Source of the DNA: an uncultured Clostridia bacterium
Lineage (GTDB): Bacteria > Bacillota > Clostridia > TANB77 > CAG-508
NCBI GenBank assembly: GCA_947595555.1
Contig: CANQES010000001.1
Span: 208-64,207 of the forward strand
DNA length: 64,000 nucleotides
Reading direction: 5' to 3'
Of this stretch, positions 13,478 to 53,100 are shown one piece after another (the first letter of the stretch is position 1; each line of letters begins with the position of its first letter). The notes beneath the pieces are model-generated. The model worked only from the letters and a program-made list of their open reading frames with translations, was not told the DNA's origin and ran no database searches. Made by a program: the position numbers and the translations under genes.

Positions 13478-13614
13478 ATGGAAATGGATGAAAAAAAATG
13501 TCCAGTTCTCGACGTTGATGGCGTTATTTCAGGAGGAAAACAATTTGATTTAGATATAACTTTGCCAGATGTTAATAAAAAAAAGTACCAAAAAGGTAAA
13601 TTAGAATTAACCTA
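13478..13614 (+). CDS. 5' fragment of a host gene split by prophage insertion. Beyond codon about 17 the reading frame is phage-derived
   Basis: RBS AAAGGAA then ATG. MEMDEKKCPVLDVDGVI joins in-frame, via the shared core, to YGVVKNCFKD... at 52774. Confidence 0.4.
13511..13540. other. attL of the prophage (core CGTTATTT at 13522-13529)
   Basis: An 8-nt stretch identical to 52767-52774. Joining the flanking host halves restores a continuous ORF. Confidence 0.5.
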
Positions 13615-13625
13615 ATCTACCTTTT
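13591..13625. terminator. Weak hairpin (AAAAGGTA ... TACCTTTT) at the prophage left end
   Basis: 8-bp inverted repeat with a long, roughly 19-nt loop and T-rich flanks. Confidence 0.25.
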
Positions 13626-13632
13626 TACTTTT

Positions 13633-14301
13633 TTATTTGTAATTTTGATTAATCATATAACCTTCTTTTCCATTTACTCTAATGCGTACTTTATCCCAAG
13701 TATAACCGTCTGCTTTTGCAACTCCTGCCTCTAATACATATAAAGTAGTATTAGGTATATACAAAACTGCTGTACTTCCTTTGGTAGTTGGTTTATTTCT
13801 TAAATTTGTATTTCTTGCTAATGTTTTTAATACTGGTGTACTAGTAGCTGGTTTACTAGGCTCTTTTACTTGATAATTGCTACTATTATATGTTCCTACT
13901 TTATTTGGTATCCCCATGTAATCTGCTGGATTACTATTATCTGCATATTTATTGCTTGTATTTCTTATTTCAAAATGTAAATGCTTTCCTGTACTATTTC
14001 CTGTACTTCCCATAATTCCTATTTTAGATACTCTGCTTACTTTTTGATTTACAGAAACGTTTATTTTTGACAAATGACAATACCAATGATATTTCCCATC
14101 AGCATCATTTTTTACTACTATAAAGTTACCATAGCTTTTATCATAGCCTGTCCTTGTTACTACTCCATCACAAGTTGCATATATTGTGTCATTGTCACAT
14201 ACAAGATCTATTCCTGTATGCCAACCACAAGCCCAACTCCCTTTTCTTTTGTATTCACATGTTACTTTAAATTCTCCTGTTAATGGTATATTTGTAGCCA
14301 T
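13633..14301 (-). CDS. Phage endolysin, M23 (LytM-type) peptidase with a C-terminal SH3-like targeting domain
   Basis: HxxxD ... GSTGNSTGKHLHFEI M23 motifs; adjacent to the holin. Confidence 0.75.
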   Translation of the reverse strand: MATNIPLTGEFKVTCEYKRKGSWACGWHTGIDLVCDNDTIYATCDGVVTRTGYDKSYGNFIVVKNDADGKYHWYCHLSKINVSVNQKVSRVSKIGIMGSTGNSTGKHLHFEIRNTSNKYADNSNPADYMGIPNKVGTYNSSNYQVKEPSKPATSTPVLKTLARNTNLRNKPTTKGSTAVLYIPNTTLYVLEAGVAKADGYTWDKVRIRVNGKEGYMINQNYK

Positions 14302-14304
14302 ATT

Positions 14305-14661
14305 CTATTCCTCCTTCTTATCATTATTTAATTTTTCTTTTAGTTTTTGTGGCATTTCTACACCCAATTTATCGCAATTTTCTGCTAAACTTGATATTTC
14401 CATCAAGCAAATATATCCTACTGCAAAATATAGTATTAGTTCTGTTCCTAGAGCAAATTTTGCCAATATTCCTATTAAAACATATACTAATTCTCCAAAT
14501 TTTTTAGATAATCCTTCCCTCATTTTTGCACTTTTAAAATCATTATTTTTCCATGCAATTATTACTCCTGTTGCTACATCTAAAACTATTAAAAATATTG
14601 GTGCTAGTATTGCCCACCATATATTTGTAAATTGTATGCTTTGCATTAATTCTTTCATCAT
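14305..14661 (-). CDS. Phage holin (3 TM)
   Basis: 118 aa with three hydrophobic helices and a charged C-terminus; immediately upstream of the endolysin. Confidence 0.65.
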   Translation of the reverse strand: MMKELMQSIQFTNIWWAILAPIFLIVLDVATGVIIAWKNNDFKSAKMREGLSKKFGELVYVLIGILAKFALGTELILYFAVGYICLMEISSLAENCDKLGVEMPQKLKEKLNNDKKEE

Positions 14662-14738
14662 TGTTCTTCACCTCTAATTTCTATATTTTATTTATTAATA
14701 TTCGTTTCTAAATCCTCACTTTAAATTTGTTGTTTCAC

Positions 14739-17700
14739 TCATTTACTCGCCTCCTCCATATAAAATTTATGTATTACTCCCTGCGTATCAACCTTAGGTG
14801 GTTCTTCTGGTTCAGGTATTGGATTATTAGGTAATTCTATATCTCCATAATCTAATATTTCTTCTTTTTCTTCTATTGCTATTTCTGGTAACTTATTGTT
14901 TTTATCACTATTAGGCATAGTTATATTATTAAATTCCAATAATTTATTTATTATCTCCTGTTGTTTTTTTATCTGTAATTTTAAATCTTGTATTTCTTCT
15001 TGTTGTTCTTGTATTGCCTTGCTTAAATATGGTATTATTTTCGTTTCATTTACCTGTAAAGTTTTTTCTCCATTAGTTTGCTCGATTTCATACGTAAAAT
15101 CTTCTTTTATGTTTTTAAGTTCTTGAGCTATATATCCTATTTCTTGATGCTTTCCTGTTTTTTTCCAATCAAATTGTCTGTGTTTAATTTGCTTTATTAT
15201 ATCCATTGCCTTAATATCAGTATTTTTTATATTACTTTTTAATCTTCCGTCTGATGCAAAAATTGTAGCCCCATAAGATGTTCCATCTCTATTGGTAAAT
15301 TGTATATACTGTTCATCAGGTACTAATGTTAATGATTTTACATTAGTTGATGTTGGTACATTACTAACATTTAAAATGCCATAATTTTTCATGTCTAAGT
15401 TAGTAAATAAATTTGTAGAACCAACTGTTGTAAATTCCATCAATATCTTATTTGTATCTTTTCTGAATATACTTGCAAATTCTGGATTGCTTCCACTTCC
15501 ACCTATGGCAATTCTTCCAGTTTTATTTAATATTATTCCCCAACCATTTGTTAAAAGATTGGTTCCTAAAAATAATCCTCCTGCTCCAAAGCCTTCTGTT
15601 CCTGACTTTGCATATGTTAGTTTTAGTATATATGAAGTATCGGATTCATCATCTTTACTTGCCCATCCTACATAATTACCGTCTGTATTTAAGTCAAATA
15701 CTAACCCTTTTTGATTATTGTTTTCTTTCATTTGACCGATGCCTATCGTTCCTATATGTTTCCCATTCTTATAAAAGCTTTCACCATATCTATCTAATAA
15801 CATTAATATATTTTTATCGCCATCTTTTATTTGAAGTTGTGCATTTATAAACTGTATATACTCTGATATTTGATTCCATGCTATTTGTACACTTTGCCAG
15901 TCTTGTTGTAATTTTGTCGCAAATTCATCATTTCCAACCTTTTTACTTACTTCTGCACTTATTTCATTTGCTTTCTGTGTTATAGCAGAGTTCATTTGTT
16001 TAGTTGTGCTATAATCTTTTAGTTTATTATTAATTGATGTATTTGCTGAATCTATTGCTTCTTCTTTTGCTGTGCTTATATTTTCATTTACTTCGGTCGT
16101 AATACTATTTGCTGTTTGCTCTATCTTACTATTCATATCAACGGTCTTAGTATAGTCCTTTAATTTGTTATCTGTAGAATTATTTGCACTATCTATTGCA
16201 TCTTGTTTGGCTTCTGTTATTGTTTGATTTACATTAGTCGTTATATTTTCTGCCGTTTGCTCTATTTTGCTGTTCATATCAACCGTTTTAGCATAGTTCT
16301 TTAACTTGTTGTCTGTAGAATTATTCGCACTATTTATTGCTTCTTGTTTTGCATTATTAGTTTCATCTTTAGTAGAATATTTTTTACTTACTTCACTTGT
16401 TATATTTTCTGCTGTTTGTTCTATTTTGCTATTCATCTGTTCTGTAGTTGAGTAATTTTTTAATTTATTATCTGTCGAAGCATTAGCACTATTAATAGCA
16501 TCTTGTTTTGCTGTAGCAATATTTTTAGATACTTCACTTGTTATACTATCTGCTTTTTCTGTTATTCTTGAATCTGTTTGTTCTATTGTATAATAATTAT
16601 CAGATAATTCTTTTTTTGTTTCAGATACTGATTGTGTAATATTACCTAAATTTATTGTAATTTCTGCAATACTACTATCATATTCGCTTATTTTATTAGC
16701 TAATCCCTCAATTCTGCTTACTGACATAGTTCCTGTTGTGATGAATTTTGCATTTATTTGTCCATCCATTGTCATAGCAATTTCAAATGGTCCTTCATAT
16801 CCGTTAGGACTAAATCCTATTCCACCTAAGCCAAATCTCCATACATTTTTTGCCTGTTCTTTTGGTATTTGATCTAAAATTAAAATTTCATTTTCATCTA
16901 TATAAACATAACCATTTTTATTTAAGGAATTTATTAAATCAGTTTGTTTTTGTATTACAGACATTTGATTAGATAATGTTTCATTTAATGTGGTTATACT
17001 TTTCTTTATATTATCAAATTTTGTTTTTACATCTCTTGTATAATTACCAAAAGTTATAGATTTGACTTTTTTAGATATCTCATCATATTCGTATTCCAAT
17101 ACTTCCGTTTTAATATTAACTAATGGATGTAAAACTTGGATTATATCCCCAATTTCTACATCATTATTTATATTAGAAGTAGTAGAATAACTAACTTTTG
17201 GATATTTATTATCTTCCATATATTGCTGTGCTTTATTTCTAAGTTCGTTTATTAAATTTTTTTCTGTTTGTTCTTCCTGTTCTAAATCTGTTTGAAAATC
17301 AACTGTTCTAGTATATGGAACTTCATATTTTATATCGCTTTCAATAAATTTTTCTGGAAGCATCAAGCCATTATATCCAATTGGATATAACTTTGTAACT
17401 ACATTAGTCCAATCTTCAAAAATTTTCATAGATTGCATATTTTTGGCATAAATTATTGATTCTCCATTGTCATGTCCTACCTTTTGTAAAAAACTAATAT
17501 TCCAATTATCTGCATCAAAAACTCCATTCCATCGTTCTTCTATAGTAGCCCATGCTTCTAATAAATTTTTTCTAATAAAATATGCTGTATCTACATTTTC
17601 AACATTTGAAAACATTTTAAAAGGACTGATTTCATCAGTCCTTTGATTTATATAATTTAGTGTATTTATACCATTCAAGTTTGTTGGTCTTACATCAACA

Positions 17701-18029
17701 AGAAAATAATTTTTAGCATCAAACATTACATGATTTGCTGTAAAAGTTATTTTTCTGTTAGTATATGTTAAATTATCTGTTATTCTAAAAGCTTGTGGAT
17801 TTAACTTTGATTTTGTTTTAATTACACAAAGTTTATCTTCTTCTATATAATTTTTATATTTTATTGGTACTTCTACTTCTATATACCATCCATTTAGTGA
17901 TTTTTTTTTAAATTCTCTGCACTTTATAGGTTCTACAATTATATTTCCAGCTGTTGAAAACTCTCTATCATTTGCATCAAATATTTTAATCATAGCCACC
18001 TGTCCTTTCTTTTTACCTTTACTATACAA
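14739..18029 (-). CDS. Phage tail fibre / tail-associated lysin-like protein, with an internal tandem-repeat region and a C-terminal S74-like intramolecular chaperone segment
   Basis: N-terminal MIKIFDANDREFSTAGNIIVEPIKCREF is typical of phage minor structural/tail proteins. Four to five roughly 41-aa repeats (DAINSAN.STDNKLK.Y..T..MNSKIEQTA.NIT.EV). C-terminal DGRLKSNIKNTDIK. Confidence 0.7.
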   Translation of the reverse strand: MYSKGKKKGQVAMIKIFDANDREFSTAGNIIVEPIKCREFKKKSLNGWYIEVEVPIKYKNYIEEDKLCVIKTKSKLNPQAFRITDNLTYTNRKITFTANHVMFDAKNYFLVDVRPTNLNGINTLNYINQRTDEISPFKMFSNVENVDTAYFIRKNLLEAWATIEERWNGVFDADNWNISFLQKVGHDNGESIIYAKNMQSMKIFEDWTNVVTKLYPIGYNGLMLPEKFIESDIKYEVPYTRTVDFQTDLEQEEQTEKNLINELRNKAQQYMEDNKYPKVSYSTTSNINNDVEIGDIIQVLHPLVNIKTEVLEYEYDEISKKVKSITFGNYTRDVKTKFDNIKKSITTLNETLSNQMSVIQKQTDLINSLNKNGYVYIDENEILILDQIPKEQAKNVWRFGLGGIGFSPNGYEGPFEIAMTMDGQINAKFITTGTMSVSRIEGLANKISEYDSSIAEITINLGNITQSVSETKKELSDNYYTIEQTDSRITEKADSITSEVSKNIATAKQDAINSANASTDNKLKNYSTTEQMNSKIEQTAENITSEVSKKYSTKDETNNAKQEAINSANNSTDNKLKNYAKTVDMNSKIEQTAENITTNVNQTITEAKQDAIDSANNSTDNKLKDYTKTVDMNSKIEQTANSITTEVNENISTAKEEAIDSANTSINNKLKDYSTTKQMNSAITQKANEISAEVSKKVGNDEFATKLQQDWQSVQIAWNQISEYIQFINAQLQIKDGDKNILMLLDRYGESFYKNGKHIGTIGIGQMKENNNQKGLVFDLNTDGNYVGWASKDDESDTSYILKLTYAKSGTEGFGAGGLFLGTNLLTNGWGIILNKTGRIAIGGSGSNPEFASIFRKDTNKILMEFTTVGSTNLFTNLDMKNYGILNVSNVPTSTNVKSLTLVPDEQYIQFTNRDGTSYGATIFASDGRLKSNIKNTDIKAMDIIKQIKHRQFDWKKTGKHQEIGYIAQELKNIKEDFTYEIEQTNGEKTLQVNETKIIPYLSKAIQEQQEEIQDLKLQIKKQQEIINKLLEFNNITMPNSDKNNKLPEIAIEEKEEILDYGDIELPNNPIPEPEEPPKVDTQGVIHKFYMEEASK
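15960..16570 (-). repeat. In-frame tandem repeat array of about 123-126 nt period (4-5 copies) inside the tail fibre gene
   Basis: Repeated DNA blocks (ttatttgctgaatctattgcttcttcttttgctg...) encode the repeated 41-aa units. Confidence 0.7.
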
Positions 18030-19843
18030 TCTCCTTCGTGCATAATTATATTGTTATTTTTTAGTTTTAAAATTGGGAAATCATATCCTATTTCTATTTG
18101 CCTATTACGATTTAGTTTTTTATATTCTACTGTTTTTTCTTTACAATCAATCTCTACATATTCATCTTCTTTAAAATCATACTTAAATCTAACATCGTTT
18201 ATTGTTATTTCAACCTGTTCAAATATTGTTTTTTCTAAACGAATAATTGGTCTGCTTTCGATATTTCCTTCATTAAATATTTTTTCATCCGTATCAGCAA
18301 TATATATTCCTTCAAATTCACAACTTATCTCATCTGTACAGAATATATGTGTTGTTCCTTTATATGTATGTGCTGTATTTTTTATATTGTCCCATACTTC
18401 TTGTTGCTCTGGAGAATATGGTTCGATTATTTCATTTTGTAAATTATATTCAACTTCTACATTGTTGTTTTTAAAATATTCTTGAACTCCTGCTTTATCT
18501 AATGAACTAAGTTCACTTTTTGGAATCAAAAACGATATTCTTCTATCTTCACTATATGAAAAAACTCCATAAAAACTATCAAACCTATTTCCCCATGTGG
18601 TTGGCTTAAATTTATTCGACAAAACATTGTTTGTTTCGTCATTCTCTCCTATTTTTTTATTTGCTACAATAATAAATGGTCTTGCCCATGTACTATTTGC
18701 TTGATAATATGTCCAATTGCTTTCAGTTCCATCGAAAGTTCTTTTTTCTTTTATTTGATGTACTCCATCATCTGCTAAATAATCTCCTTTATGAAATACT
18801 TGTCCTTGTTTGGCTGGAAATGTAAAACATTGCTCTTGATAAGTTTCGAGCATTGTTTTAATTTCATCAAATGTTGCTCTTCCTTCAAATAATGCAACTC
18901 TTATTTTTAGATTGTTAAGTTCTGTTTCTTTTAATAGATTAAAACCTAAATATCCTAAAAAATCACCCGAATTATTTGTAAGTGTAACAGCTCTATTATC
19001 AAGACACGATGTAAAGCTACTTCCATCTTCTTTTGTAATATATAGATTCCCTGTGGTACCACTCCCTGAAATAATTTCATTATATAACGTATATACATGT
19101 CCTGTTTTAAATGGAATTTTTGGAGACTTAGCAGCAAAATCGGTTCTCCCTCCTGAAGTATTTGCTGTACCATTTAGTGTCCATATATTTCCATCTACAT
19201 TAACTTCTACATTTCTTACATTTGCAGAAAACTTGCTGTTAATATAAATGTTTTTCAAATTGTTATTACTTATCTTAAAATTAATATTCCCACAATTCTT
19301 TATTGGACTAGGATTTTCTGGACTAGGTTTTGTATCATCTGTCTCTTGCCATGTATTACCCTTAATAGTCAATTTTTTAAATCTTGCCCCTGTTCCATCT
19401 TCTATTGTTATATTTTCTCCAGTTATTTCCTTATCTTTTCTATCTTTAACTAAAATAAACTCATCATCAGCCTTATTCCAAAATGGATCTCTAATAAATG
19501 TAGTATCTATTACTCTTATACAGGCACTTCTTTCCGGTTCCAATTGACTGTAAAACCTAGCTATAGTTTTTCTTCCTTTATATTCAAACTCCCCTTCTCC
19601 ATTTAGCCATGCAAGTATATCATCAATTTTATTAATATTTAAACATTGAACATATATAGGTCTCTCTATACATGAATAACCTAAAGTATTAAATTCTGCT
19701 CCATCTCGTCCTTCTATTTCTACTGCCTCATATCTTTGTGATGCTTTTGCTATAAAATGTTCTTCTTCTTCAACTACTACTTGCATATCTTTGCTAGATA
19801 TTCCTTTAAATTTAAACATATTACACCACCTTGTATAATTCAT
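17990..19843 (-). CDS. Phage distal tail protein (Dit-like), long form
   Basis: Lies between the tape measure and tail fibre genes. 617 aa, overlapping its neighbours by a few codons. Confidence 0.55.
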   Translation of the reverse strand: MNYTRWCNMFKFKGISSKDMQVVVEEEEHFIAKASQRYEAVEIEGRDGAEFNTLGYSCIERPIYVQCLNINKIDDILAWLNGEGEFEYKGRKTIARFYSQLEPERSACIRVIDTTFIRDPFWNKADDEFILVKDRKDKEITGENITIEDGTGARFKKLTIKGNTWQETDDTKPSPENPSPIKNCGNINFKISNNNLKNIYINSKFSANVRNVEVNVDGNIWTLNGTANTSGGRTDFAAKSPKIPFKTGHVYTLYNEIISGSGTTGNLYITKEDGSSFTSCLDNRAVTLTNNSGDFLGYLGFNLLKETELNNLKIRVALFEGRATFDEIKTMLETYQEQCFTFPAKQGQVFHKGDYLADDGVHQIKEKRTFDGTESNWTYYQANSTWARPFIIVANKKIGENDETNNVLSNKFKPTTWGNRFDSFYGVFSYSEDRRISFLIPKSELSSLDKAGVQEYFKNNNVEVEYNLQNEIIEPYSPEQQEVWDNIKNTAHTYKGTTHIFCTDEISCEFEGIYIADTDEKIFNEGNIESRPIIRLEKTIFEQVEITINDVRFKYDFKEDEYVEIDCKEKTVEYKKLNRNRQIEIGYDFPILKLKNNNIIMHEGDCIVKVKRKDRWL

Positions 19844-22800
19844 CTTTTACTATTTTAGCAAAGCCATCTTCATCTAATGTAAATTTGCAATTTGTCAAAG
19901 CTTTTTCTATTGCATTTGCCATTTTGTTATAGTCAAAATCTAAATTAGATATTTCTGTTTGAGCATTACTTGATTTATTATCTTTGTTATTTATTTGCTT
20001 AAAATCATCTATTTTTTGTAAATCGCTAGACATTTCTTCTGTCATATTTTTTACAGATTTTATAAGTCTTGGTGAAGATTTATCTAAAGATTTTCCTAGT
20101 CCTTCAACCATATCTGGCATCCATTTTTCATACTCGCGTAATGGTCCTGTATCTGGTTTTGAAAAATGTAAAAATGAAGCTATTTTCCCAGCTAATCCAC
20201 TTAAAATATTAGTAAACCAATTGCTGTTTCCTCTCGATTGGATTCCTCTTCCTAGTCCATCAACCATGTCTCTTCCCCATGCATTACTATTATTTCTGGC
20301 AATGGCTTGCTTTGCCCTATTAGCTAAATTTCCTGCTTCATTTTGTATTTTTGTATCCATTTTTAAAGTATCGGATGAAGCTTTTATCTTTTCTTGCATT
20401 TTTTCAGGTAATTTTAGATTATCTTTGAATAATGATGTTGCTTGACTTCCTTTTTGTCCTAATGTTGTTGATAGTCCAGTATCTACAGCTATTATTCCTG
20501 TAGCTTCTTGGATTTTTTTTCTCGTCTCTGGAGGTAATTTAGAAATGCCTTCACTATATTTAGAATAACTTTGTTGTCCTGCATATTTCCATGCTTCTAT
20601 TTGTTTAGGAGTTAATTCTTTTACTGTTAATGTCTGTTCTGTTAAAGAATTTATAAGATTATTTAATTGCTGTTGATTTGTCGTTAATTGATTGTTTAAT
20701 ATTTGTGCTTGATATTGGTCATTATCAGCCTTTGCTTGTGCTAAACTTTCTTTTATAAATTTTACATATTCGCTTTGATTTACTATCTGTTCTTCTAAGC
20801 TTTCCTTTGTTTTTTCTTTTGCTGTTTCATATGATATTCCTATTTCAGTTACAGCCTTTTCTATTGCTTCAGCAGATCCTTCAACACTTGCTTTTTGCAA
20901 ACTCTCATAATCCTGTATAGTTTTGCCATATGAAGAAACTAATTCTGTTTGTTCTCCAATTTTTTGTGCAATACTACTGTATAAAATTTCTGCTTCCATT
21001 CTTTCCTTTGCATTTCCAGTAGCCATTGTATTAGTAGCCTCAACTAACTGTTTTTTTAAACCTATTAATGTTTCTGTTGCCTTAGCTTGTTCTTTTATTG
21101 CTGTTCCATATTCTTCTTGATAAGCATTTAATATTGCTTCTGCTTTTTTTACAGCTATAATTTTATCTATATTATCTTTTAATTCCTGGTATTGAGATAT
21201 AATATTTCCATTTAATTTGTACTCTGTACCTAAAGCATTATTTAATTGATTTAAGATTACTTTTGCTCTTGTTTCATATCCTTCTTTAACTTTCCCATTC
21301 TCATCTGTAATTTGTTTTAAATCTTCTGCTAGCTTTTCACTAATTTCAATTTCTGTCATACTACTAGATAATGATTCTTGTCTCGTTTTTGCTAATTCTT
21401 CCCAACTTTGTTTTTGATTATCCACTTCTTGTCTTAATCCATTTAATGATGCCTTTTGCTGTGTAGTAGCTACATGATGAGCTGTATATGCTGCAATTAA
21501 TGCACCTAAAGCTATTGTTGTAAGTCCTATTGGACTCGTTATTGCTGAAAATACATTTGCTAAACCATTTACTGCTGTAGATGTTGAAGTTACCGTTCCT
21601 CTTACAACTCCTATTGCTTGTGTAAATGCTCCTATACCCTCTATTGCTCCACCTACCGTTGATGTTACTTTTCCTAATATCATTAATAAAGGTCCAATTG
21701 CTGTAACTGCCAATCCTATATTCATTATAAATTCAACTTGTTCATCACTTAAATTGCTGAACCAATTTGCAAGTCCTTCTACTCCATCTATTAGTTTTGA
21801 AATATATGGCATTAACTTATTTCCTATTGTAACTCCTATATCTTTTAATTTATTTATTGCTATTGAAATTTTACTTTGTAAAGTTTCATATCTTTTATTA
21901 GCCTCATTTGTTAATGCTGTATTATCTTCCCATGCTTCATTTCCAAGTTTTATTGCTTTTGACATTACATCGCTTGCGTTAGCAGAACGTAATAATGCAT
22001 CTCTAAGTCTTGTTTCTGTTATCCCCATGTCATCTAAAATTTTAATTGCACTTTTTCCTTGTTTCCCACTTTTAGATAAACCTTCAACAAATTTCATAAT
22101 TGCATTTGTAGCATCTTGTTTAAAAGCTTTTTTAAAAACTTTTGAACTCATTCCTGCTACAGAAGCAAAATCTTTTAAACTATCTCCACCTTTTTCAACT
22201 GCTAATTGCATATTTATCATTACTTTTGAAAATGCTGTTCCTCCTGCTTGGGCTTCTAAACCTACTGAACTAAGTGCTGTTGCTAATGCCATTATTTGAG
22301 ATTGGCTCATTCCAACTTGTGTTCCTGCAGAAGCTAAATTCATTCCCATATTAGTTATTTCTGCCTCTGTTGTTGCGAAATTATTTCCCAAAGCAACAAT
22401 AACAGAACCTAATCTGTTAAAGTCTGATTGGCTCATCTTCGTTACGTTTGCAAATCTTGCTAATGTAGTAGCCGCTTCATCCGCTGACAAATTAGTTGCA
22501 TTGCCCATATTAATCATTGTTTTTGTAAATTCTAAAATATTATCTGTTTGTATTCCTAATTGTCCTGCAGCTTCTGCTACCGCACTTATTTCTGTTGTAC
22601 TAGCTGGAATTTCTTTTGACATATCCCTTATGCCTTGTTTTAATGCATTCATTTGTTCTTCGGTACCATCTACTGTCTTTTCTACACCAGTAAATGCTGA
22701 TTCAAAATCTATTGCTCCTTTAGCAGCAGTTAATAATGCTGTTCCTGTTGCAATGGAAAAAGCAGACAATTTTTTGCCTGCTCCTTCTATTTTATTTCCG

Positions 22801-23216: not shown

Positions 23217-23269
23217 TGTTCTCTCACCTCTTTTTTAACATAACAGCTCTTATTTTATTTTTTTATAAT

Positions 23270-23626: not shown

Positions 23627-23649
23627 AAAAACTATTGAATAAAATTTAA

Positions 23650-27526: not shown

Positions 27527-27545
27527 GGTTAAATCCCTTCCTTTT

Positions 27546-38017: not shown

Positions 38018-38026
38018 ACTTTCCTC

Positions 38027-40532: not shown

Positions 40533-40543
40533 CTAATACACTC

Positions 40544-43046: not shown

Positions 43047-43056
43047 AAGCTACTCC

Positions 43057-43377
43057 TTAAATTGTTGGTATATGGTTCATATTTAATTGTTCAAAGCCTT
43101 CTTGAGTTATCTTATAAACTGCAACCATTTTTCCTGTATAATTACATTTTTTCTTGTCTACAACTTCTACCATTCCCATTTGTTCTAATTCTGTAAGTCT
43201 AGGTGCTGTATAATTTCGCTCCGTACTTGGAATAAGTTGTAAATCAAATAATTCTACTGCTATTTCTTTTGCTGTTTTTTCTCCTGATATAAGTCTATCT
43301 ATTATCTGTTCATACCTTATTTTTCTTTTTGGTTTTATATCTTCAAAACTCATTTGTCTTGTAAATTCAGTAATCAT
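43057..43377 (-). CDS. Phage hypothetical protein (wHTH-like)
   Basis: 106-aa ORF. Confidence 0.3.
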   Translation of the reverse strand: MITEFTRQMSFEDIKPKRKIRYEQIIDRLISGEKTAKEIAVELFDLQLIPSTERNYTAPRLTELEQMGMVEVVDKKKCNYTGKMVAVYKITQEGFEQLNMNHIPTI

Positions 43378-43391
43378 TTGTTACCACTTCC

Positions 43392-43913
43392 TTACTTTAG
43401 CATCATTAACTCATTAAATAATCCATTCTGTCCTTCTATACTTAATTTGTTATATTCTTCTTCTTGCTTACATTCATTAATAATTTTGATTTTTTCTCCA
43501 AACGACTTCCCTTCGATTTTGCTTTTATATTTATTAAATAAAAAAATATAAATGTCTTTATCTAGTCTATTTATGTTGGACACATTAGCTGTCGTTTGTA
43601 CTGTCATTTGTACTGTCGTTTCTACTGTAAAATTTACAGTATTTATTTTGTATTGATTTGGACTTCCTTTTTTGCCTTTTTTATATTCAAACAACCCTGC
43701 ATTTAATAAGTTGTCCCTACACCTAATAAATGTTTTTTCACTTTCAATTTGCATAATGCTCATTAATCGATGGTTATCTACTGTAACCCATTCGCTCCAC
43801 CCACATCTGTTAAATAATGATATTAACTTATACCATAATAACTGCGATGAGATTGGCAAATAGTTAGTTTCGAGCCATCTCTCAAAGGCATTAATCAAAT
43901 CTATGTATGTCAT
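43392..43913 (-). CDS. Phage replication protein (DnaD / replisome-organiser-like N-terminus) with internal origin-like repeats
   Basis: The N-terminus LWYKLISLFNRCGWSEWVTV resembles a replisome organiser. The C-terminal TVETTVQMTVQTT is encoded by DNA iterons. Confidence 0.45.
   Translation of the reverse strand: MTYIDLINAFERWLETNYLPISSQLLWYKLISLFNRCGWSEWVTVDNHRLMSIMQIESEKTFIRCRDNLLNAGLFEYKKGKKGSPNQYKINTVNFTVETTVQMTVQTTANVSNINRLDKDIYIFLFNKYKSKIEGKSFGEKIKIINECKQEEEYNKLSIEGQNGLFNELMMLK
43595..43640. repeat. Iteron-like direct repeats (TTTGTACTGTC x2, TTTCTACTGTA) plus the palindrome ACTGTAAAATTTACAGT. Candidate phage replication origin
   Basis: Three 11-nt direct repeats at a 12-nt period, followed by a perfect 17-nt palindrome, inside the replication gene. 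Confidence 0.45.
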
Positions 43914-43968
43914 AATGTTCTTCTCCTTTTGTAAAATATAAGGCTAGTTTTATGCCTAGCCCTGTTGT

Positions 43969-44283
43969 TTATTCATTAATTAAAATTGTATTAAATGAAG
44001 ATACTAAATAAACTTTATCATCTTCTGTAATTATTTGAATTTGTTCTCCCTCATAATCTGTCCATGTTTTTACATTAAGTTCTAATTTTTCATTATTCAT
44101 ATACACTATAGCTTTTTTATATGTATAACTTAAATCTACTGCCGTTTTATTTCCTACTGTTCTTGCAAATATAAATTTATATATTCCAAATCCAAACATT
44201 ACTACCGTTATTAAAATAATAATTATATTAAATATTAATTCTCCATCAATATATCCTTTTTCGCTTTTAATTTTTTTTAACAT
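43969..44283 (-). CDS. Phage membrane protein
   Basis: One N-terminal TM helix; 104 aa. Confidence 0.3.
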   Translation of the reverse strand: MLKKIKSEKGYIDGELIFNIIIILITVVMFGFGIYKFIFARTVGNKTAVDLSYTYKKAIVYMNNEKLELNVKTWTDYEGEQIQIITEDDKVYLVSSFNTILINE

Positions 44284-44285
44284 TT

Positions 44286-44672
44286 TTATTCCTCCTTTAA
44301 AGAACTTTTTCCTATAATTTTTATAAATTCTTCTCTTGTATGAGTTTTCTCAAATTCTTTTTGAGTTTCTAGCTTTAATTGTTTAAGTATTTCTTCGTTT
44401 GAATGACATTCTCTGCATAACATTTTTACAAATCCATTTAATATACTTCTTTCTCTGTTACTACCTCCAAATACCTCATGAGGATCTAAATGCTTAAACT
44501 TTCTATGACAATACTCACATTCTCCATATTTAACAATTTTTTTGTCTCTTTGTCTTTCTAGTTTTGCTAACTTACTACTTTTCTTTTTAATCTCTTTGAC
44601 TTTTCTTTGTTTCTCTTTGACTTTTGGTTTTGGGCAAGGATAAAAGCTATTACTTAAATCTTTTATTATCAT
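44286..44672 (-). CDS. Putative HNH-type nuclease
   Basis: CEYCHRKF...HEVFGGSNRERS...N...CRECH. Confidence 0.45.
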   Translation of the reverse strand: MIIKDLSNSFYPCPKPKVKEKQRKVKEIKKKSSKLAKLERQRDKKIVKYGECEYCHRKFKHLDPHEVFGGSNRERSILNGFVKMLCRECHSNEEILKQLKLETQKEFEKTHTREEFIKIIGKSSLKEE

Positions 44673-45211
44673 CTTTTATCCCAACTTTCTAACAAACTAT
44701 TTATCTCTTCTGGTGTTTTTGTTTCTATCCCATACATTTGGCAGTCTTGTACTACTCCATCTATAAGCCTACTCATTTGTTTTGTATTAAATGAACTTGA
44801 CCCATAATAAGCATTTATTATTTTAAATTCTGTATTTCCTATTATTTCTGTATCAAATATTTCACAAAACCAAGCTATTCCTTGAGATGTCCACATTTTT
44901 TCAAATGTATTAACATTGTCTTTTTCTATTCTAAATCTTCTAAAAATACCTAATTCCTTTACTCTACGTTTATATTCTTCCTTAGTATCTATTTCTGCTA
45001 ATTCGCATAATTCTTGTAGTAACTTCCAAAAATAATTATTTGCATCTAAACTTCTTTTTTTTCTATACTTCTTTAAGTCAATATTTAGCTTATTTTCGTT
45101 TTTTAACTGTTCTACTATCTCTATTTCCTTTGTATCTAAAAGTAAGCTTATTTTTGGTTTTCGTGTCTCATAATCTATATTTATATCTTTTATAATTCCT
45201 GTTGTTTGCAT
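44669..45211 (-). CDS. Phage hypothetical protein
   Basis: 180-aa ORF. Confidence 0.3.
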   Translation of the reverse strand: MQTTGIIKDINIDYETRKPKISLLLDTKEIEIVEQLKNENKLNIDLKKYRKKRSLDANNYFWKLLQELCELAEIDTKEEYKRRVKELGIFRRFRIEKDNVNTFEKMWTSQGIAWFCEIFDTEIIGNTEFKIINAYYGSSSFNTKQMSRLIDGVVQDCQMYGIETKTPEEINSLLESWDKR

Positions 45212-45213
45212 AT

Positions 45214-46131
45214 TTACAACCTCTTTACATTTATTCTTGTTTCATCTCTTGCCGGAACTAAATATTCTTTTTTGTGTATAATCTTTTTTTCAAAAATATA
45301 TTTATTGCTTAATACTTTTTGTCTATTGCCAATAGCCTTTTTAATTTGATTGTTTACTTCTGTATATTCTTGATAATATTTTGATAATTCTTGCTTTTTG
45401 TCTACTAATTCATCAAGTTCCCCTGAAACATCTACATCTGTTTCTACTCTTTTTATATTAGCAGTACATACATGAGCTAAATCGCAATATTCACATACAC
45501 TTATATCTTCACAACTTTCTGGTAACCTTTCTTCTTCTAAACATTTATATATTCTTTCTGCTTTTTGTAGTAGTTGTTCTGCAAAGTCATAATCAAATTT
45601 TACCTCTATTAATTTTATTTCACCCGTTAATTTATTACACAAAGCAAAATATCCTTTCTCTTTACCAAATTGGAACATATAAATATATAATTGAGCAGGA
45701 TATGCTCTGACATAATATTTTTTACTATTTAAAAAGTCTTCTACTGAATTTAATTTTTCCCATTCTTGTGGACTCAATCCTTTTACTTCTACAGGATAAA
45801 ATTGTCCATCTTCTAGTTTTATTCTTAAATCTTCCCTTCCAGTCACAAGAGGTTTTTCAACCTTCCATGCTCTTACTGTTGGAGTTATAACTTCAAATCC
45901 TGAATCTTTTAAAGTTTGTATTACATATTCTTCTATCTTATTTCCTAAATCAAAAATACATTGAGTTGTCTCATTATAAAGTTTTTTATCCTCCCAATTT
46001 TTTATAGATAAATATAAATATCTTTCACAAGGATGTCCTATATTTGAAGCTCTTAAATTATTGCAAGGATATAATTTAATTTTACTTTGTTTGTTCTCCT
46101 TTATTTTGTTGTTCATTTCCTGTATTTCCAT
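45214..46131 (-). CDS. PD-(D/E)XK-family recombination exonuclease (Cas4/YqaJ-like) with a C-terminal Cys cluster
   Basis: The D...E.K core (DLRIKLEDGQFYPVEVK) and C-terminal CEDISVCEYCDLAHVC. Confidence 0.55.
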   Translation of the reverse strand: MEIQEMNNKIKENKQSKIKLYPCNNLRASNIGHPCERYLYLSIKNWEDKKLYNETTQCIFDLGNKIEEYVIQTLKDSGFEVITPTVRAWKVEKPLVTGREDLRIKLEDGQFYPVEVKGLSPQEWEKLNSVEDFLNSKKYYVRAYPAQLYIYMFQFGKEKGYFALCNKLTGEIKLIEVKFDYDFAEQLLQKAERIYKCLEEERLPESCEDISVCEYCDLAHVCTANIKRVETDVDVSGELDELVDKKQELSKYYQEYTEVNNQIKKAIGNRQKVLSNKYIFEKKIIHKKEYLVPARDETRINVKRL

Positions 46132-46339
46132 CTAACTCTCCTTTCTTAGCAAGAGCTTGACATTTTCTACATAATTCCTTTTTGTAATTTGCTCTACTAT
46201 AACTTGCTTCTTGTGATGTTATATTTTCACCACAATGTTCACATTTAAAATTACCTGTTACTGTAGTTGATGCATTTTTACTATTTCCTTTAAATCCATA
46301 CCCTCTCATTTTGTTGCAATCTAATCCAGCATTTGCCAT
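46082..46339 (-). CDS. Zinc-ribbon protein; could be the frameshifted C-terminus of the upstream ORF
   Basis: CEHCGEN...CRKC. The frame is open 16 codons upstream of its ATG and overlaps the end of ORF 46290..46910. Confidence 0.3.
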   Translation of the reverse strand: MANAGLDCNKMRGYGFKGNSKNASTTVTGNFKCEHCGENITSQEASYSRANYKKELCRKCQALAKKGELDGNTGNEQQNKGEQTK

Positions 46340-46910
46340 ATCTTCTACTGTTAAATTTCTTAACCCGTGGCAATATTCTTTTTATTCCATTGTTAATGCA
46401 ATTTGTATAAGCTGATATCTTTACATCTCTTTTATCGATATCTTGTGGTTTCTTAGCTATTTTCCCTTTTTCTTTATCTTCTTTTCCTGTAAAAAACTCA
46501 TCTTTACTACTTCTGCTTCCTGTTGCCTCTATGCTTACTCCTCCCATAGTAAATTTGCCTTTATATGTATATGTAAAATGTCCGTCTGTTTCTGTTTCTA
46601 AAATAGGCTCACTTATACTCCAACCTATTCCAAATAATCTTGCTACCTTGGTTGCTCCACTTTCTTGCAAATATGGAACTCCTCCAATTAAAACCCAGTC
46701 ATTCTCATTTGTTATTTTTAATGATGCACTCATTATTCTTTTAATTGCCTCTATTCTTCTTTCTGCCTGTTCTGCCATTGCTAATAAATTATCATTACTA
46801 AGCATACTTATTTCTGTATCCAATTCATTTGTATTTACTTCTACTAATTCTTGATTACTCAATTCCATTTTCCTCCCTCCATTTATCATCGTAATAACAT
46901 TCTTCTGCAA
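46290..46910 (-). CDS. Putative single-strand annealing / ssDNA-binding recombination protein
   Basis: Sits next to the exonuclease. The W-rich C-terminal 30 aa look like out-of-frame read-through. Confidence 0.3.
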   Translation of the reverse strand: MQKNVITMINGGRKMELSNQELVEVNTNELDTEISMLSNDNLLAMAEQAERRIEAIKRIMSASLKITNENDWVLIGGVPYLQESGATKVARLFGIGWSISEPILETETDGHFTYTYKGKFTMGGVSIEATGSRSSKDEFFTGKEDKEKGKIAKKPQDIDKRDVKISAYTNCINNGIKRILPRVKKFNSRRYGKCWIRLQQNERVWI

Positions 46911-47047
46911 TTAATTCGAAGATGTTTCCTTCTTCGTCATTTTCTATGTAATCTTCCATAAAAAAACGTTCTCCTTCTTGACTTCTACTTCAACTTTGTG
47001 TATAATTAAAATAGAAATCATGTATTTATATATGTTTTTTGTTTGAA

Positions 47048-47335
47048 CTAGTATGTTTGTCCGACGTCTAGTTCTTTTTTATATAAAATAGTTTTTATTT
47101 TATTTTTTAGATTCTTTGTACTGTTATAATCTTGTTCTTTCATTAAATTATCTATTGCTAATATTTTTCTATGATTACGATAATTTTCAATATGTTCGTC
47201 TTCTATCTCATTTCTTAAATCTTGAATACTTTCTTCTTGTCTTCTAATTTTCATTTTCAAGTCTTCTATTTCTCTCTCTTTTGCTTTTAAAATTTTGTTA
47301 TGCATTGTTCTTGTAATAAAAAACATATTCCTCAT
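47048..47335 (-). CDS. Phage hypothetical coiled-coil protein
   Basis: 95-aa ORF. Confidence 0.3.
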   Translation of the reverse strand: MRNMFFITRTMHNKILKAKEREIEDLKMKIRRQEESIQDLRNEIEDEHIENYRNHRKILAIDNLMKEQDYNSTKNLKNKIKTILYKKELDVGQTY

Positions 47336-48287: not shown

Positions 48288-48515
48288 TTATTTTTTATCA
48301 TTTGTAGAACTTATTGTACGTTGTGTTGCTAAAAAAATTTGTACAATAGGTACTCCAAGAATTTCAGCAAATACTGATTTAGCTTTATCACTAGGACTTC
48401 TCTCTCCTCTTTCTATCATTGAGATATAATCCTTTGAATATCCGGATTTCCTTGCCAGCTGTTCTTGTGTTAATTTACTTTTTATCCTTAATTCCTTAAA
48501 AGATAATTTTTTCAT
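48288..48515 (-). CDS. Cro-like XRE-family HTH regulator
   Basis: LTQEQLARKSGYSKDYISMIERGERSPS; divergent from the CI-like gene. Confidence 0.75.
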   Translation of the reverse strand: MKKLSFKELRIKSKLTQEQLARKSGYSKDYISMIERGERSPSDKAKSVFAEILGVPIVQIFLATQRTISSTNDKK

Positions 48516-48556
48516 TTTTCTATCTCCTTTCGTACTTTTTGTTCGTTTGTAATTGA

Positions 48557-48585
48557 ATTATATAGTACAATATGTTCTTTGTCAA
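48557..48585 (-). promoter_or_regulatory. Early (cro-side) promoter TTGACA-17-TATAAT on the minus strand, with an operator-like repeat in its spacer
   Basis: Reverse complement of 48580-48585 is TTGACA; reverse complement of 48557-48562 is TATAAT. GTACAATATGTTC sits at 48565-48577. Confidence 0.45.
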
Positions 48586-48645
48586 TACTTTTTTGAAATT
48601 TTTTCTTAAAAATTTTTAAAACTATTGAAACTCTAAGAAAGAAAT

Positions 48646-48658
48646 TTGTACAAATTGT
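48646..48658. promoter_or_regulatory. Second copy of the operator-like repeat GTACAA(A/T)(T/A)TGTTC
   Basis: GTACAAATTGTTC, compared with GTACAATATGTTC at 48565; just upstream of the CI-side -35. Confidence 0.35.
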
Positions 48659-48666
48659 TCTGTTTT

Positions 48667-48695
48667 TCTTTACAAAACGTACTATTTGTTATATA
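48667..48695 (+). promoter_or_regulatory. Repressor-side promoter TTTACA-17-TATAAT
   Basis: TTTACA at 48667-48672 and TATAAT at 48690-48695; the RBS AAAGGAA precedes the ATG at 48720. Confidence 0.45.
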
Positions 48696-48719
48696 ATGTT
48701 TTTATCAAATTAAAAAGGA

Positions 48720-49076
48720 ATGATTTATTTGAATAGATTAAGAGAATTAAGATTAGAAAAAGGATTATTACAATCTGACATATCAAAAATTATAAATAAA
48801 GGAGAAAGAACGGTAGGATTTTACGAAACTGGAGAAAGAGATATGGGAACAGAAACCTTATCAATTTTATCTAATTTTTTTAATGTTTCTATAGATTACT
48901 TGTTAGGAAAATCAGATATAAGAAACCCTGAAAAAATTGATCATGATAAAATAAATATTGGTTTAAGTAAAAAAGATTATAACCCACCTACCCCAGAGCA
49001 GCAAGAAAAAATCGAAGAATTTGCAAAATTTGTACTAAAAGATAATTTAAAAGATAAGGAAGATAAAAATAAATGA
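48720..49076 (+). CDS. CI-like XRE-family HTH repressor (ImmR-type, no S24 peptidase domain)
   Basis: LLQSDISKIINKGERTVGFYETGER HTH; followed by an ImmA-like gene. Confidence 0.7.
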   Translation: MIYLNRLRELRLEKGLLQSDISKIINKGERTVGFYETGERDMGTETLSILSNFFNVSIDYLLGKSDIRNPEKIDHDKINIGLSKKDYNPPTPEQQEKIEEFAKFVLKDNLKDKEDKNK

Positions 49077-49496
49077 ATTTAGAAAATTTATATGATTTAG
49101 CTGAAAAAGAAAATGTTAAAATATATGATTTTTATTTTGATGAAGATATAAATGGAATGTTTTTAAACTATGATAAGTTAAATGCAATTGCTTTAAACTA
49201 TAAAAATATTAGAAATAGCCAAGAAGAAAAATGTGTATTATCTGAAGAACTAGGTCACTATTATATGGATGCAACCTATAATTATACTAATATTGATAAA
49301 ATTATCTTTGACAAACAAGAATATCGTGCTAGAAAATGGAGTTATTATGCGCTTATTCCTTTTGAAAAATTAAAATTAGCCATCTTAAATCGGAATTGAT
49401 ACTCTTTATAAATTAGCAGAATATTTTGAAGTTACAGAAGAATATATGAAAAATGCATTAAAATTTTATGAAGGAAAATATGGTCTTATTTTTTAA
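49073..49496 (+). CDS. ImmA/IrrE-family metallopeptidase-like anti-repressor, apparently frameshifted near 49385-49400
   Basis: SEELGHYYMD (HEXXH-like). After the stop at 49399 a second frame encodes the typical C-terminus ...IDTLYKLAEYFEVTEEYMKNALKFYEGKYGLIF. Confidence 0.5.
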
Positions 49497-50241: not shown

Positions 50242-50703
50242 ATGCAATGTAAAAAATGTAAAAAAGAATGTATGGAAAATGAACTGACAAATGGTATATG
50301 TGCAGATTGTTTAATTGAAAACAATAAAGGAACTGTAAATACAAATTCAAATGCAAATGCTATAGGTTGCTTGGTAGCTTTTATATTCATAGGTGCAATT
50401 TGTTTTTTTATTTGGAATGGAATTGGCAGTATTTTTAATGACACTAAAACAGACGATAATTCAGGAACTCCAAGTAATATAGAATTGATGTCTTATGCCC
50501 AAACTGTATTAGATGATAATTTAAGTAATCCAAAATATTCAAGTAATAAAAATGACTATAATTTTGTAAAAACAGGTTTAAGATATAAAATAGAAGGAAA
50601 AGTTAATAATGAAAAATTTTGGCTAATAATACAATTTACAGATGACACATATAAAGAATATGATTTAATATCTTTGCAAATTGGAAACAAAACAATTAAA
50701 TAA
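50242..50703 (+). CDS. Moron: zinc-ribbon membrane protein
   Basis: N-terminal CKKCKK...CADC, one TM helix and an extracytoplasmic domain. Confidence 0.35.
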   Translation: MQCKKCKKECMENELTNGICADCLIENNKGTVNTNSNANAIGCLVAFIFIGAICFFIWNGIGSIFNDTKTDDNSGTPSNIELMSYAQTVLDDNLSNPKYSSNKNDYNFVKTGLRYKIEGKVNNEKFWLIIQFTDDTYKEYDLISLQIGNKTIK

Positions 50704-50969
50704 AAAGAAAAGTTTGTAATTTTAACAAGCCATAAAAACAAAGCTATTAATAAAAAAATATGAAACACTATAAAACTAATAAAAATGTATTACTTATAAT
50801 AAATTTGTTAAAGAATTAAAACAATTAAAAAATAGATAACATACTCCCCACCAAAGCTAAATAATTCAATATAAATCCTAGTATAAAAAATAAAATTTGA
50901 CATATTTTATAATATGTGTTATTATAATTATAGCTAGCAAATAACCAGTCTAGTAAATGAAAAACACAT

Positions 50970-51010
50970 AAAAAGACTAGGAAGCCTGAACAATTTCCTA
51001 GTCTTTTTTC
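50970..51010. terminator. Bidirectional terminator (AGACTAGG / CCTAGTCT, 15-nt loop, T6)
   Basis: Inverted repeat with A-rich and T-rich flanks, between the morons and the integrase. Confidence 0.45.
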
Positions 51011-51309
51011 TATGCTATTTACTTAATCTCTTTATTATGTAATAAAGTATTATAAGTTTTAGCACGTCTAACCAGTTTTTCAATGAAAAACACCTCCTTT
51101 CTACCTTTTGGAGAAAGGCACGTTTACTATAACATTATTAGTTCTATTTTGTCAAATTTGATAATCAAAAATAGATAATGTATTCTGCGACCAAACTTCA
51201 TACATTACCTATTCTCTATCTACTTGTATAAGTAGTTTATAGTTGTATTATACAATATTAAACCTCTTTATACAAGTACCAAAAATTTGTTTAAGGAGGT
51301 TATTTTTGC

Positions 51310-52725
51310 GTGAAAGATAATATAAATAATAATATGAATAATTTTAATAAAAAAGCTGAAGAAGTTGCACTCTACATCCGTGTCTCAACAGAGGAACAAG
51401 CCTTAAATGGAGATAGTCTAAGAACACAAAGAGAAGAATTAACTAAATATGCTCTTGCCAATGGTTTTCATATTTATAATATTTACGAAGACGATGGCTT
51501 TTCTGCTACTAATCTTAAAAGACCTGCATTGCAAAGAATGTTAAAAGACGTAGAACAAAATAAGATAAATAGAATACTTATAACAAAACTTGATCGTCTA
51601 TCTCGTGGAGTTAGGAACTATTATAAAGTTTTAGATGTTTTAGATGAACATGATGTATTTTGGCAAACTATATTTGAAAAATACGACAGTTCAACAGCCA
51701 ATGGTAGACTACATATTAATATTATGCTTTCTGTTGCAGAAAATGAATCCGCTCAAACCTCTGAAAGAATTAGGAGTGTCTTTAAAACAAAAATACAAAG
51801 TAAAGAATTGATAAGTGGCAAAATTCCTATTGGCCTTAAAAAAGATGATAAAAGAATGATAATAGATGAAGACAAAAAACAAGTTATTTTAGATGCTTTT
51901 CAGTTTTATAAAGAAACAATTAGTGCATATCAAACTTTTCAAAAATTAGACCTAAAATACCCAGAATTACAATTAAATTACATGAGAACTTATCGAATTT
52001 TAACAAACAAACTATATGTAGGAATTAAAGAAACTCGATATGGAGATATAGAAAACTTTTGTCCTGCAATAATAGACATTAATACATTTGAAAATACTCA
52101 AAAAATGTTGAAGAAAAATGCCAGAAAACAAAGTCATAATAATTCTGGTGGATATATTTTTCAAGGCATGTTAAAATGTGCTGAATGCGGATATACTTTG
52201 GGTGGCAAATTTTATGCTAAGAATTTAGAAAGTTCTAAATATTACTATATCTGCAAACGTCATCATTTATCTTTGAAATGCAGTTGTAATACGAATTTTA
52301 ATGAACAAAAAATTGAGCAGAAACTTTTAAAACAATTTATTCCTCAACTTGAAAAGTATATTTCTAATTATGAATACAAACAAAATAACGTTAAAAAACT
52401 TAATTTTTCAAAGGAAATTAATTCTGTTGAATCTAAATTAATTAAATTAAAAGATTTATATATAAGAGATTTAATTAGAATAGATGATTATGAAAATGAT
52501 TATAAAAAATATGTTTCTCAGTTGGAAAATCTATACAAAGAACAAGAAAGCATTGAGACAGACAAGCCAAAAAACAACATAGACATATTAAAATCATTCT
52601 TAAACCAAGATATTTTAACTATATATAATAATTCTTCTAGGTTAGAAAAAAGACGATTATGGTTATCTGTAATTGATTATATTGTAATAGATAAGGATTA
52701 TAACATGCAAATATTTTTTATTTAA
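51310..52725 (+). CDS. Large serine recombinase (phage integrase)
   Basis: Resolvase N-domain VALYIRVSTEEQ...; recombinase domain; zinc ribbon CAECGYTLGGKFYAKNLESSKYYYICKRHH; GTG start after AAGGAGG. Confidence 0.9.
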   Translation: MKDNINNNMNNFNKKAEEVALYIRVSTEEQALNGDSLRTQREELTKYALANGFHIYNIYEDDGFSATNLKRPALQRMLKDVEQNKINRILITKLDRLSRGVRNYYKVLDVLDEHDVFWQTIFEKYDSSTANGRLHINIMLSVAENESAQTSERIRSVFKTKIQSKELISGKIPIGLKKDDKRMIIDEDKKQVILDAFQFYKETISAYQTFQKLDLKYPELQLNYMRTYRILTNKLYVGIKETRYGDIENFCPAIIDINTFENTQKMLKKNARKQSHNNSGGYIFQGMLKCAECGYTLGGKFYAKNLESSKYYYICKRHHLSLKCSCNTNFNEQKIEQKLLKQFIPQLEKYISNYEYKQNNVKKLNFSKEINSVESKLIKLKDLYIRDLIRIDDYENDYKKYVSQLENLYKEQESIETDKPKNNIDILKSFLNQDILTIYNNSSRLEKRRLWLSVIDYIVIDKDYNMQIFFI

Positions 52726-52726
52726 C

Positions 52727-53100
52727 TATTTTGGTACTTTTTTCTACTAACAGAAGACAATCGTGACGTTATTTATGGAGTTGTAAAAAATTGTTTTAAA
52801 GATCCAGTATGTGATGCTGTTGTAAAATTAGTGGAAGTTGTTTATGAACATGGAAAAGAAGAAAGAAGACCAATTGGGCACACTTTTACAGATAAAGAGG
52901 GTGAATTTGTATTTGGACCTCTTTGCCCAGGAAAAGAATACGCTATCCAAATTTGGGTAAACGACACAAAAAAAATTAAAATTTGTGCAAAATGTCATCA
53001 TGAAGGCAAATGCTTAAAAGGTGAAAAATGCGATAAATGTGACTGTTTTATCGATGACTGCGAAAAAGAAGATTTTTGTGAAAAACCTGAATGTGAATAA
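52727..53100 (+). CDS. 3' fragment of the phage-split host gene: transthyretin / carboxypeptidase-regulatory-like fold followed by a Cys-rich tail
   Basis: The frame is open from 52727 with no ATG until 52831. ...VIYGVVKNCFKDPVCDAVVKLVEVVYEHG...KICAKCHHEGKCLKGEKCDKCDCFIDDCEKEDFCEKPECE. Confidence 0.5.
52755..52790. other. attR of the prophage (core CGTTATTT at 52767-52774)
   Basis: Identical 8-nt core to 13522-13529, in-frame with the downstream host ORF. Confidence 0.5.

Follow-up and report, generated by a model that had tools for sequence, protein, structure and literature searches.

A serine-integrase prophage at a fixed codon of a conserved 145-codon gene in an uncultured Clostridia bacterium: attachment sites and a natural GA/TC pair

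Among the closest described counterparts of the element analyzed here are the Listeria phages A118 and phi10403S in comK. They use a large serine integrase, a bacterial attachment site (attB) of low symmetry in a coding region, and an imperfectly palindromic phage attachment site (attP); the identity shared by the sites is short, and an asymmetric crossover of 2 base pairs (bp) alone sets the orientation (PMC3556126). A comparable arrangement was found in a 64,000-nucleotide (nt) stretch of DNA from an uncultured Clostridia bacterium (contig CANQES010000001.1; hereafter the window), in which a prophage interrupts a conserved gene for a protein of 145 amino acids (aa). The target gene, the host, and the crossover dinucleotide differ from the Listeria case (GA here, GG in A118), the integrases are only distantly related, and reversible 'active lysogeny' belongs to the Listeria case.

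Serine-recombinase elements also split genes of endospore formers: SPbeta (SprA/SprB) of Bacillus subtilis resides in spsM and skin (SpoIVCA; CD1231/CD1234 in C. difficile) in sigK, and their precise excision rebuilds the reading frame, as it would here (PMC4191935, PMC5499854, PMC5025042). As in the intervening elements skin, SPbeta, vfbin, vrin, and gin, a site-specific recombinase belonging to the element lies beside one junction. In SPbeta and skin, however, target expression is sporulation-specific and excision is triggered by sporulation, whereas the target in the window is an uncharacterized protein. The att sites of Bxb1 and phiC31 are similar in that the central dinucleotide alone determines polarity. 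For these phages and A118 the rule was shown by mutagenesis, whereas here it was deduced from natural variants in metagenome contigs, in which two sister phage groups, with GA and TC, occupy one attB in opposite orientations. The closest cultured-phage integrase was that of phiCD27/CD1801 from Clostridioides (46% identity), and the closest solved catalytic domain that of the TP901-1 integrase (E = 1.5e-25). Both are too distant to have att sites in common with the element, and the 800-bp reconstructed attP region had no blastn match in any deposited phage.

The element is very probably a temperate tailed phage of 39,185 bp, integrated by its own large serine integrase at codon 30/31 of the conserved gene. 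As a prophage in a gene it belongs to a well-known kind and is an ordinary case of it, of some value for its recurrent attB and its GA/TC polarity pair.

Attachment sites and the interrupted gene

The features that define the two junctions are the following.

13478–13569, plus strand: 5′ part of the host gene, codons 1–30 and the first 2 nt (GA) of codon 31, assigned by DNA match to locus L001 and protein alignment
13566–13569, plus strand: attL, CAGA shared with attR; presumed crossover dinucleotide GA at 13568–13569
13570–13593, plus strand: P′ arm of attP, TGTTAATAAAAAAAAGTACCAAAA; free-phage contigs L088 and L095 have this arm after the core as well
51310–52725, plus strand: large serine integrase, 471 aa, assigned by Pfam domains; motif YIRVSTEEQ readable
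52729–52752, plus strand: P arm of attP, TTTTGGTACTTTTTTCTACTAACA, beginning 3 nt past the integrase stop codon
52751–52754, plus strand: attR, shared CAGA; presumed crossover dinucleotide GA at 52753–52754
52753–53100, plus strand: 3′ part of the host gene, codon 31 to stop, identical to the L001 attB from 52751 and supported by protein alignment

The junctions were located by comparison with the empty site L001. The left flank of the window is 94.6% identical to this locus over 4,070 bp, and the match stops precisely at 13569; within it, the 5′ part of the host gene (92 nt) is 97.8% identical, up to exactly that position. The right flank aligns from 52751 on, and the left and right matches overlap by 4 nt (CAGA). 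The intact L001 gene reads ...ACTTTGCCAGAAGACAATCG..., with attB as ...ATAACTTTGCCAGAAGACAATCGTGAC...; attL equals attB up to ...GCCAGA, and attR equals attB from CAGAAGAC... on. Each of the two is a precise hybrid between the attP and the attB of L001. These parent sites have only CAGA in common, and no target duplication extends past that identity. The junction sequences are GATATAACTTTGCCAGAAGACAATCGTGAC (...TTGCCAGAAGACAA...) for attB and TTCTACTAACAGATGTTAATAAAAAAAAG (...CTAACAGATGTTAA...) for attP, and the crossover lies in the contexts ...TTGCCA-GA-AGACAA... and ...CTAACA-GA-TGTTAA..., respectively.

When the phage ends were joined, the attP read TTTTGGTACTTTTTTCTACTAACA-GA-TGTTAATAAAAAAAAGTACCAAAA, a quasi-palindrome of ~50 bp (24+2+24) whose arms match as inverted repeats around GA at 22 of 24 positions. 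It adjoins the integrase gene, which ends 27 nt ahead of the attR crossover. The attB is weakly symmetric and lies inside the host gene. The integrase carries the Pfam domains Resolvase (8.6e-34, residues 19–161), Recombinase (1.1e-06), and Zn_ribbon_recom (1.2e-09), that is, the resolvase-type catalytic domain, recombinase domain, and zinc ribbon of a serine integrase. The first-pass annotation of this DNA had correctly recognized a large serine recombinase at 51310–52725 and a serine-integrase prophage inside a host protein-coding gene.

The same annotation had taken the 8-mer CGTTATTT, which is indeed present at 13522–13529 and 52767–52774, as the att core. Both copies are host coding sequence, encoding G-V-I-S and D-V-I-Y within one gene, and the identity to L001 runs 40 nt beyond the left copy (to 13569) and begins 16 nt before the right one (at 52751). 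The actual attL lies 44 nt further right and the attR 16 nt further left. The attP junction formerly predicted, ...CGTGACGTTATTTCAGGAGG..., has no dyad symmetry (13/24, which equals background) and differs from the attP in free-phage contigs; the corrected junction is ...CTACTAACAGATGTTAATAAAAA....

The joined flanks do give a Cys-rich open reading frame (ORF), as had been proposed, although of 145 rather than 126 codons. Fusion of 13478–13569 to 52755–53100 is in frame and yields 145 aa. The earlier fusion is also in frame (125 aa plus stop) but drops 20 conserved codons, SGGKQFDLDITLPEDNRDVI, of the full-length homologues. A homologue search with that shorter protein returned 1,844 homologues. 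Intact homologues read ...DGVISGGKQFDLDITLPEDNRDVIYGVV... and the aligned full-length members ...LDVDGVISGGKQFDLDITLPEDNRDVIYGVVKNCFK..., all with the 20 residues that the shorter fusion lacks. The left ORF of the window encodes ...DGVISGGKQFDLDITLP before diverging (dvnkkkyq...), and the right flank reads ...ffllt and then EDNRDVIYGVV. Because the homologue alignment continues there, the stretch after the left 8-mer and the 16 nt leading up to the right 8-mer belong to the host gene and not to the phage.

With the corrected protein, one genome per species was scanned. The scan returned 80 loci from uncultured gut Clostridia (rabbit, mouse, human). In all of them the gene is contiguous, with approximately residues 1–130 to 1–145 covered at 79–96% identity, and no phage sequence was found in these 80 related genome loci. 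The relatives match the 145-codon fusion, whereas the exact 126-codon version is unmatched among them.

The shared 8-mer is insignificant, because more than 70% of comparable sequence pairs in DNA of 28% G+C share one: at a window G+C content of 27.8%, at least one 8-mer was common to 72% of pairs made by shuffling the two boundary zones and to 76% of pairs drawn at random from the window. The same two zones also have the 10-mer TTTTTTATTT in common. In AT-rich DNA, the longest repeat near the prophage ends is an unreliable att core for serine integrases; comparison with an empty site together with attP dyad symmetry settles it. With the corrected coordinates, polymerase chain reaction or read mapping can be directed at the right junctions, and the host protein is correctly given as 145 aa.

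What remains of the gene after insertion is a 5′ stub of 45 codons (ORF 13478–13615; 30 from the host and 15 from the phage) and a 3′ part without a start, there being no in-frame start ahead of a GTG at 52831. In both respects the first description was accurate.

Related phages and the polarity of integration

Integrases ~80% identical to that of the window are very many in metagenomes, with more than 100 clusters among the matches listed, and the phage family is widespread in gut metagenomes. In several contigs the lysis genes stand directly behind the integrase gene, which is the excised arrangement. L088 and L095 have ...ACAGATGTTAATAGAAAAAAGTAC... between the two, as predicted for attP; their sites read ...GGTACTTTTTCACTTGAACAGATGTTAATAGAAAAAAGTAC... 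(L088) and ...CACTTGGACAGATGTTAATAGAAAAAAGTAC... (L095). The integrase protein P0185 is found in the attP state in L095 and in the attR state in L093, L094, L096, and L097, where the orthologous host gene, by its 3′ half (...CACTTGGACAGAAGACAATAGAGATGTA...), comes next after the integrase gene. The two forms part ways directly after ACAGA. Because P0185 is identical in both, one phage is seen in both states. L081–84, L092, and L098, which carry different integrase variants and come from different host species, have the same attR at the same codon, and altogether 11 of the 11 integrated contigs surveyed, with five integrase variants, are inserted at this codon. At the level of sequence, integration is shown to pair the ~50-bp quasi-palindromic attP with a weakly symmetric attB at a fixed codon inside the gene.

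In a sister phage group (L086, L087, L089, L090), the attP reads GTACTTTTTCACTTTAACA-TC-TGTCTAAGTGAAAAAGTAC, with arms matching at 19 of 24 positions; it is the same quasi-palindrome with the center inverted (ACA-TC-TGT). In L091, the sister-group integrase gene runs into the 5′ half of the host gene, which stands there as its reverse complement; the same site was used in the opposite orientation. The truncated host product there is MEMDYKKPMCPVLDIDGVISGGKQFDLDITLPdvkvkkyq, followed by a stop. A GA center thus goes with an integrase gene beside the host 3′ half (the window, L081–84, L092–98) and a TC center with one beside the 5′ half (L091). In these natural variants the orientation follows the central dinucleotide, as would be expected of a GA/TC crossover that determines polarity; the result is observational rather than mutational. 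That an asymmetric central dinucleotide alone sets polarity has been shown for A118, with the same result cited for Bxb1 (PMC3556126).

Because of the dyad axis and the natural GA/TC flip, the crossover was placed at GA (13568–69 and 52753–54), which would give a phage genome of the length stated above. Strand exchange would occur at the central GA of attP and attB. Excision would need the integrase together with a phage recombination directionality factor, and would restore the host gene exactly. The attP/attB pairs now defined for an integrase family, whose members are ~80% identical to one another and which includes a natural GA/TC switch, may interest those who mine serine integrases for genome-engineering tools.

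Three observations on individual contigs and gene calls are added. At 52723–52755, the integrase ORF and the host 3′ half are in one frame, parted by TAA and nine sense codons. In other lysogens, gene callers give chimeric ORFs that start within the integrase 3′ end (P0025, P0051, P0054). The protein P0110 was considered as a possible second integration site close to the left 8-mer and rejected: the gene in L085 is intact and has no phage junction. A small frame disruption at about codons 12–16 of the host gene (L085, 130–260) led the gene caller to pick another N-terminus.

The host gene and the question of sporulation

The host protein is predicted to consist of a small beta-sandwich and then a Cys-rich tail. 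In the structure model, the sandwich spans residues 21–110 (block-mean predicted local distance difference test score 65–91) between disordered ends, and the prophage is inserted between the first two predicted strands (21–28 and 37–43). With strand beta-1 cut off from the rest of the domain, the gene presumably has no activity as long as the prophage stays integrated. Nine of the 13 Cys residues are in the last 40 residues, and such a tail is reminiscent of spore coat and exosporium proteins. A profile search with the host protein gave 371 cluster representatives at E-values up to 0.001; the names of its clusters are absent or 'hypothetical protein'. Pfam and NCBIfam gave nothing above threshold, only sub-threshold transthyretin-like or NOMO beta-sandwich matches, and sequence and fold searches of the PDB gave only generic beta-sandwich or carbohydrate-binding module matches (TM about 0.33–0.45).

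Upstream of the gene, two conserved features were recorded.

13405–13432, plus strand: promoter-like motif, CAAC, 15 nt, TCATATTATA, of the sigma-K type form (−35 AC, −10 CATAnnnTA)
13438–13455, plus strand: hairpin AGTAAC-ATTTTA-GTTACT in the 5′ untranslated region, directly after the −10 box, conserved and also present in loci L002–L080

The −35 AC and −10 CATAnnnTA pattern is that of sigma-K in C. difficile and B. subtilis (PMC3789822). The motif has one match in the window against 0.04 expected, and CAAC-N15/16-TCATAT(G/T)ATA stands at a fixed position upstream of the gene in most orthologous loci inspected. A scan of the plus strand found no sigma-70-type site for the host gene. Among 25 orthologous loci, 6 of the 6 hairpin pairs are changed on both sides, a covariation score reached by none of 500 shuffles; the hairpin could be a 5′-terminal mRNA-stabilizing stem.

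The window also carries an ftsZ–spoIIGA–sigE cluster (60635–63458, minus strand), in which SpoIIGA scores above the curated cut-off and the sigma-factor ORF has SigE as its best match, just below the cut-off. With these three genes present, the host is of an endospore-forming lineage. A distant homologue of the host gene is surrounded by SipL-domain genes and by genes that have sigma-K-like promoters. We lean, with modest confidence, towards a late mother-cell gene on the basis of these sequence features. The uncharacterized conserved gene is a candidate spore gene that phages hit recurrently in gut Clostridia.

Such a target invites comparison with SPbeta in spsM and skin in sigK, and the prophage might be a developmentally regulated intervening element of their kind, excised in the mother cell during sporulation to rebuild a late spore-envelope gene while the germ line keeps the prophage. 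The conserved AC-N15/16-CATAT(G/T)ATA motif at a gene with no sigma-70-type site, the covarying hairpin at the place where the transcript 5′ end would be expected, the Cys-rich tail, the presence of spoIIGA and sigE, and the surroundings of the distant homologue all agree with this, and a serine recombinase in a sporulation gene is a known pattern (PMC4191935, PMC5025042, PMC5595907). Against these stand the names and folds, since every named source calls the gene hypothetical and the fold matches are generic beta-sandwiches. Moreover, the prophage has no excess of sigma-K-like motifs (5 against 5.7 expected), and the scan of the prophage for such promoters found none at an obvious directionality-factor gene or at a telling position. 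The element has the look of an ordinary, complete temperate phage, its family also occurs as free phage DNA, and ordinary lysogeny accounts for everything seen. Regulated excision is possible, and what speaks for it is confined to the nature of the target gene; we consider a developmentally regulated element unlikely, if worth keeping in view. Also unlikely is the broader proposal that, in uncultured spore-forming Clostridia of the gut, the family acts as a system of 'active lysogeny' or gene intervention: it would sit in a Cys-rich spore-envelope gene that depends on sigma-K and would leave it in the mother cell to rebuild that gene, with the GA and TC attPs as natural variants of one targeting system.

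Gene content of the prophage and neighboring sequences

An ordinary temperate phage, the preferred reading, is what the predicted genes describe: by annotation, the content is that of a complete temperate tailed phage, with structural, lysis, replication, and lysogeny genes. Protein assignments were made with PHROGs unless another source is given.

13589–13627, minus strand: terminator-like hairpin after the phage lysis genes (sequence scan)
13633–14301, minus strand: M23-peptidase endolysin (Pfam Peptidase_M23, 1.3e-26), in a lysis cassette (13633–14661) adjoining attL
14305–14661, minus strand: holin of the same cassette (Pfam Phage_holin_4_1, 4.6e-22)
14739–24319, minus strand: tail module, with tail or receptor-binding proteins, tape measure protein (19821–23216), and major tail protein (23684–24319)
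26387–31715, minus strand: head and packaging module, with major head protein, head protease, portal, and large and small terminase subunits
34207–34282, minus strand: phage-borne tRNA-Pro (UGG)
35119–47335, minus strand: early region, with HNH endonucleases, NinB-like protein, Cas4-type exonuclease, and replication-initiator-like protein
48288–48515, minus strand: Cro-like helix-turn-helix protein, in the lysogeny switch (48288–49399)
48720–49076, plus strand: repressor-like helix-turn-helix protein of the switch
49073–49399, plus strand: ImmA-like metalloprotease of the switch

The portal gene (28372–29572, minus strand) is in two ORFs of 111 and 285 aa, both assigned to phrog_12. They are separated by a 1-nt frameshift near ...GGTTTAAAACGGTAATAATCTAATG... 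at ~29230–29240, beside a short A run.

Several points weigh against a functional temperate phage with the crossover given here. Excision of this particular prophage is presumed, and no candidate for the recombination directionality factor was identified; such factors have no common sequence signature (PMC12286644). The portal frameshift may mean that the element is defective, or it may be an assembly error. Neither the cultured-phage collection nor IMG/VR yielded a close relative; in IMG/VR, an integrase-based locus search gave none and an exact-pattern scan had no match to the two attP arms. Finally, the choice of GA over CA or AG within CAGA follows from the dyad symmetry and the flipped sister attP and not from biochemistry.

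The portal gene in two frames would fit a decayed and immobile remnant, with the host gene permanently inactivated in this strain. However, the lesion is a single 1-nt shift by a short A run, where an assembly error is possible, and the integrase, both att arms, and all other modules are intact, which makes a remnant distinctly improbable. Crossover within CGTTATTT, with excision rebuilding a 126-codon gene, has next to no chance of being right: the 8-mer at both sites and the in-frame fusion agree with it, but the reach of the L001 identity, the presence in full-length homologues of the 20 codons it deletes, its asymmetric attP unlike that of the free-phage contigs, and the expected frequency of such 8-mers all contradict it.

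The integrase gene is preceded by a gap of 600 nt, in which a unit at ~50900–51010 (plus strand) consists of a near-consensus TTGACA...TATAAT promoter and, ~80 nt further on, a terminator-like hairpin with a GACTAGGAAGCC...GGCTTCCTAGTC-type stem and a T run. Rfam gave no match for this unit, which could be a phage small RNA.

Outside the prophage, a polysaccharide deacetylase gene (12469–13242) is divergent from the interrupted gene; its product is PdaB-like, below the curated cut-off. A 25-nt GC-rich sequence, GGATTTGGGGACGGCCCCATAATCC, occurs in four copies at gene ends (1674–1698, 5786–5810, 53121–53145, and 53166–53190), against 0 expected. The pair at 53119–53192, which lies between the interrupted gene and a convergent pyrimidine-nucleoside phosphorylase gene, makes up an inverted repeat of 36 nt, and the element looks like a repetitive extragenic palindromic (REP-like) or bidirectional-terminator repeat.

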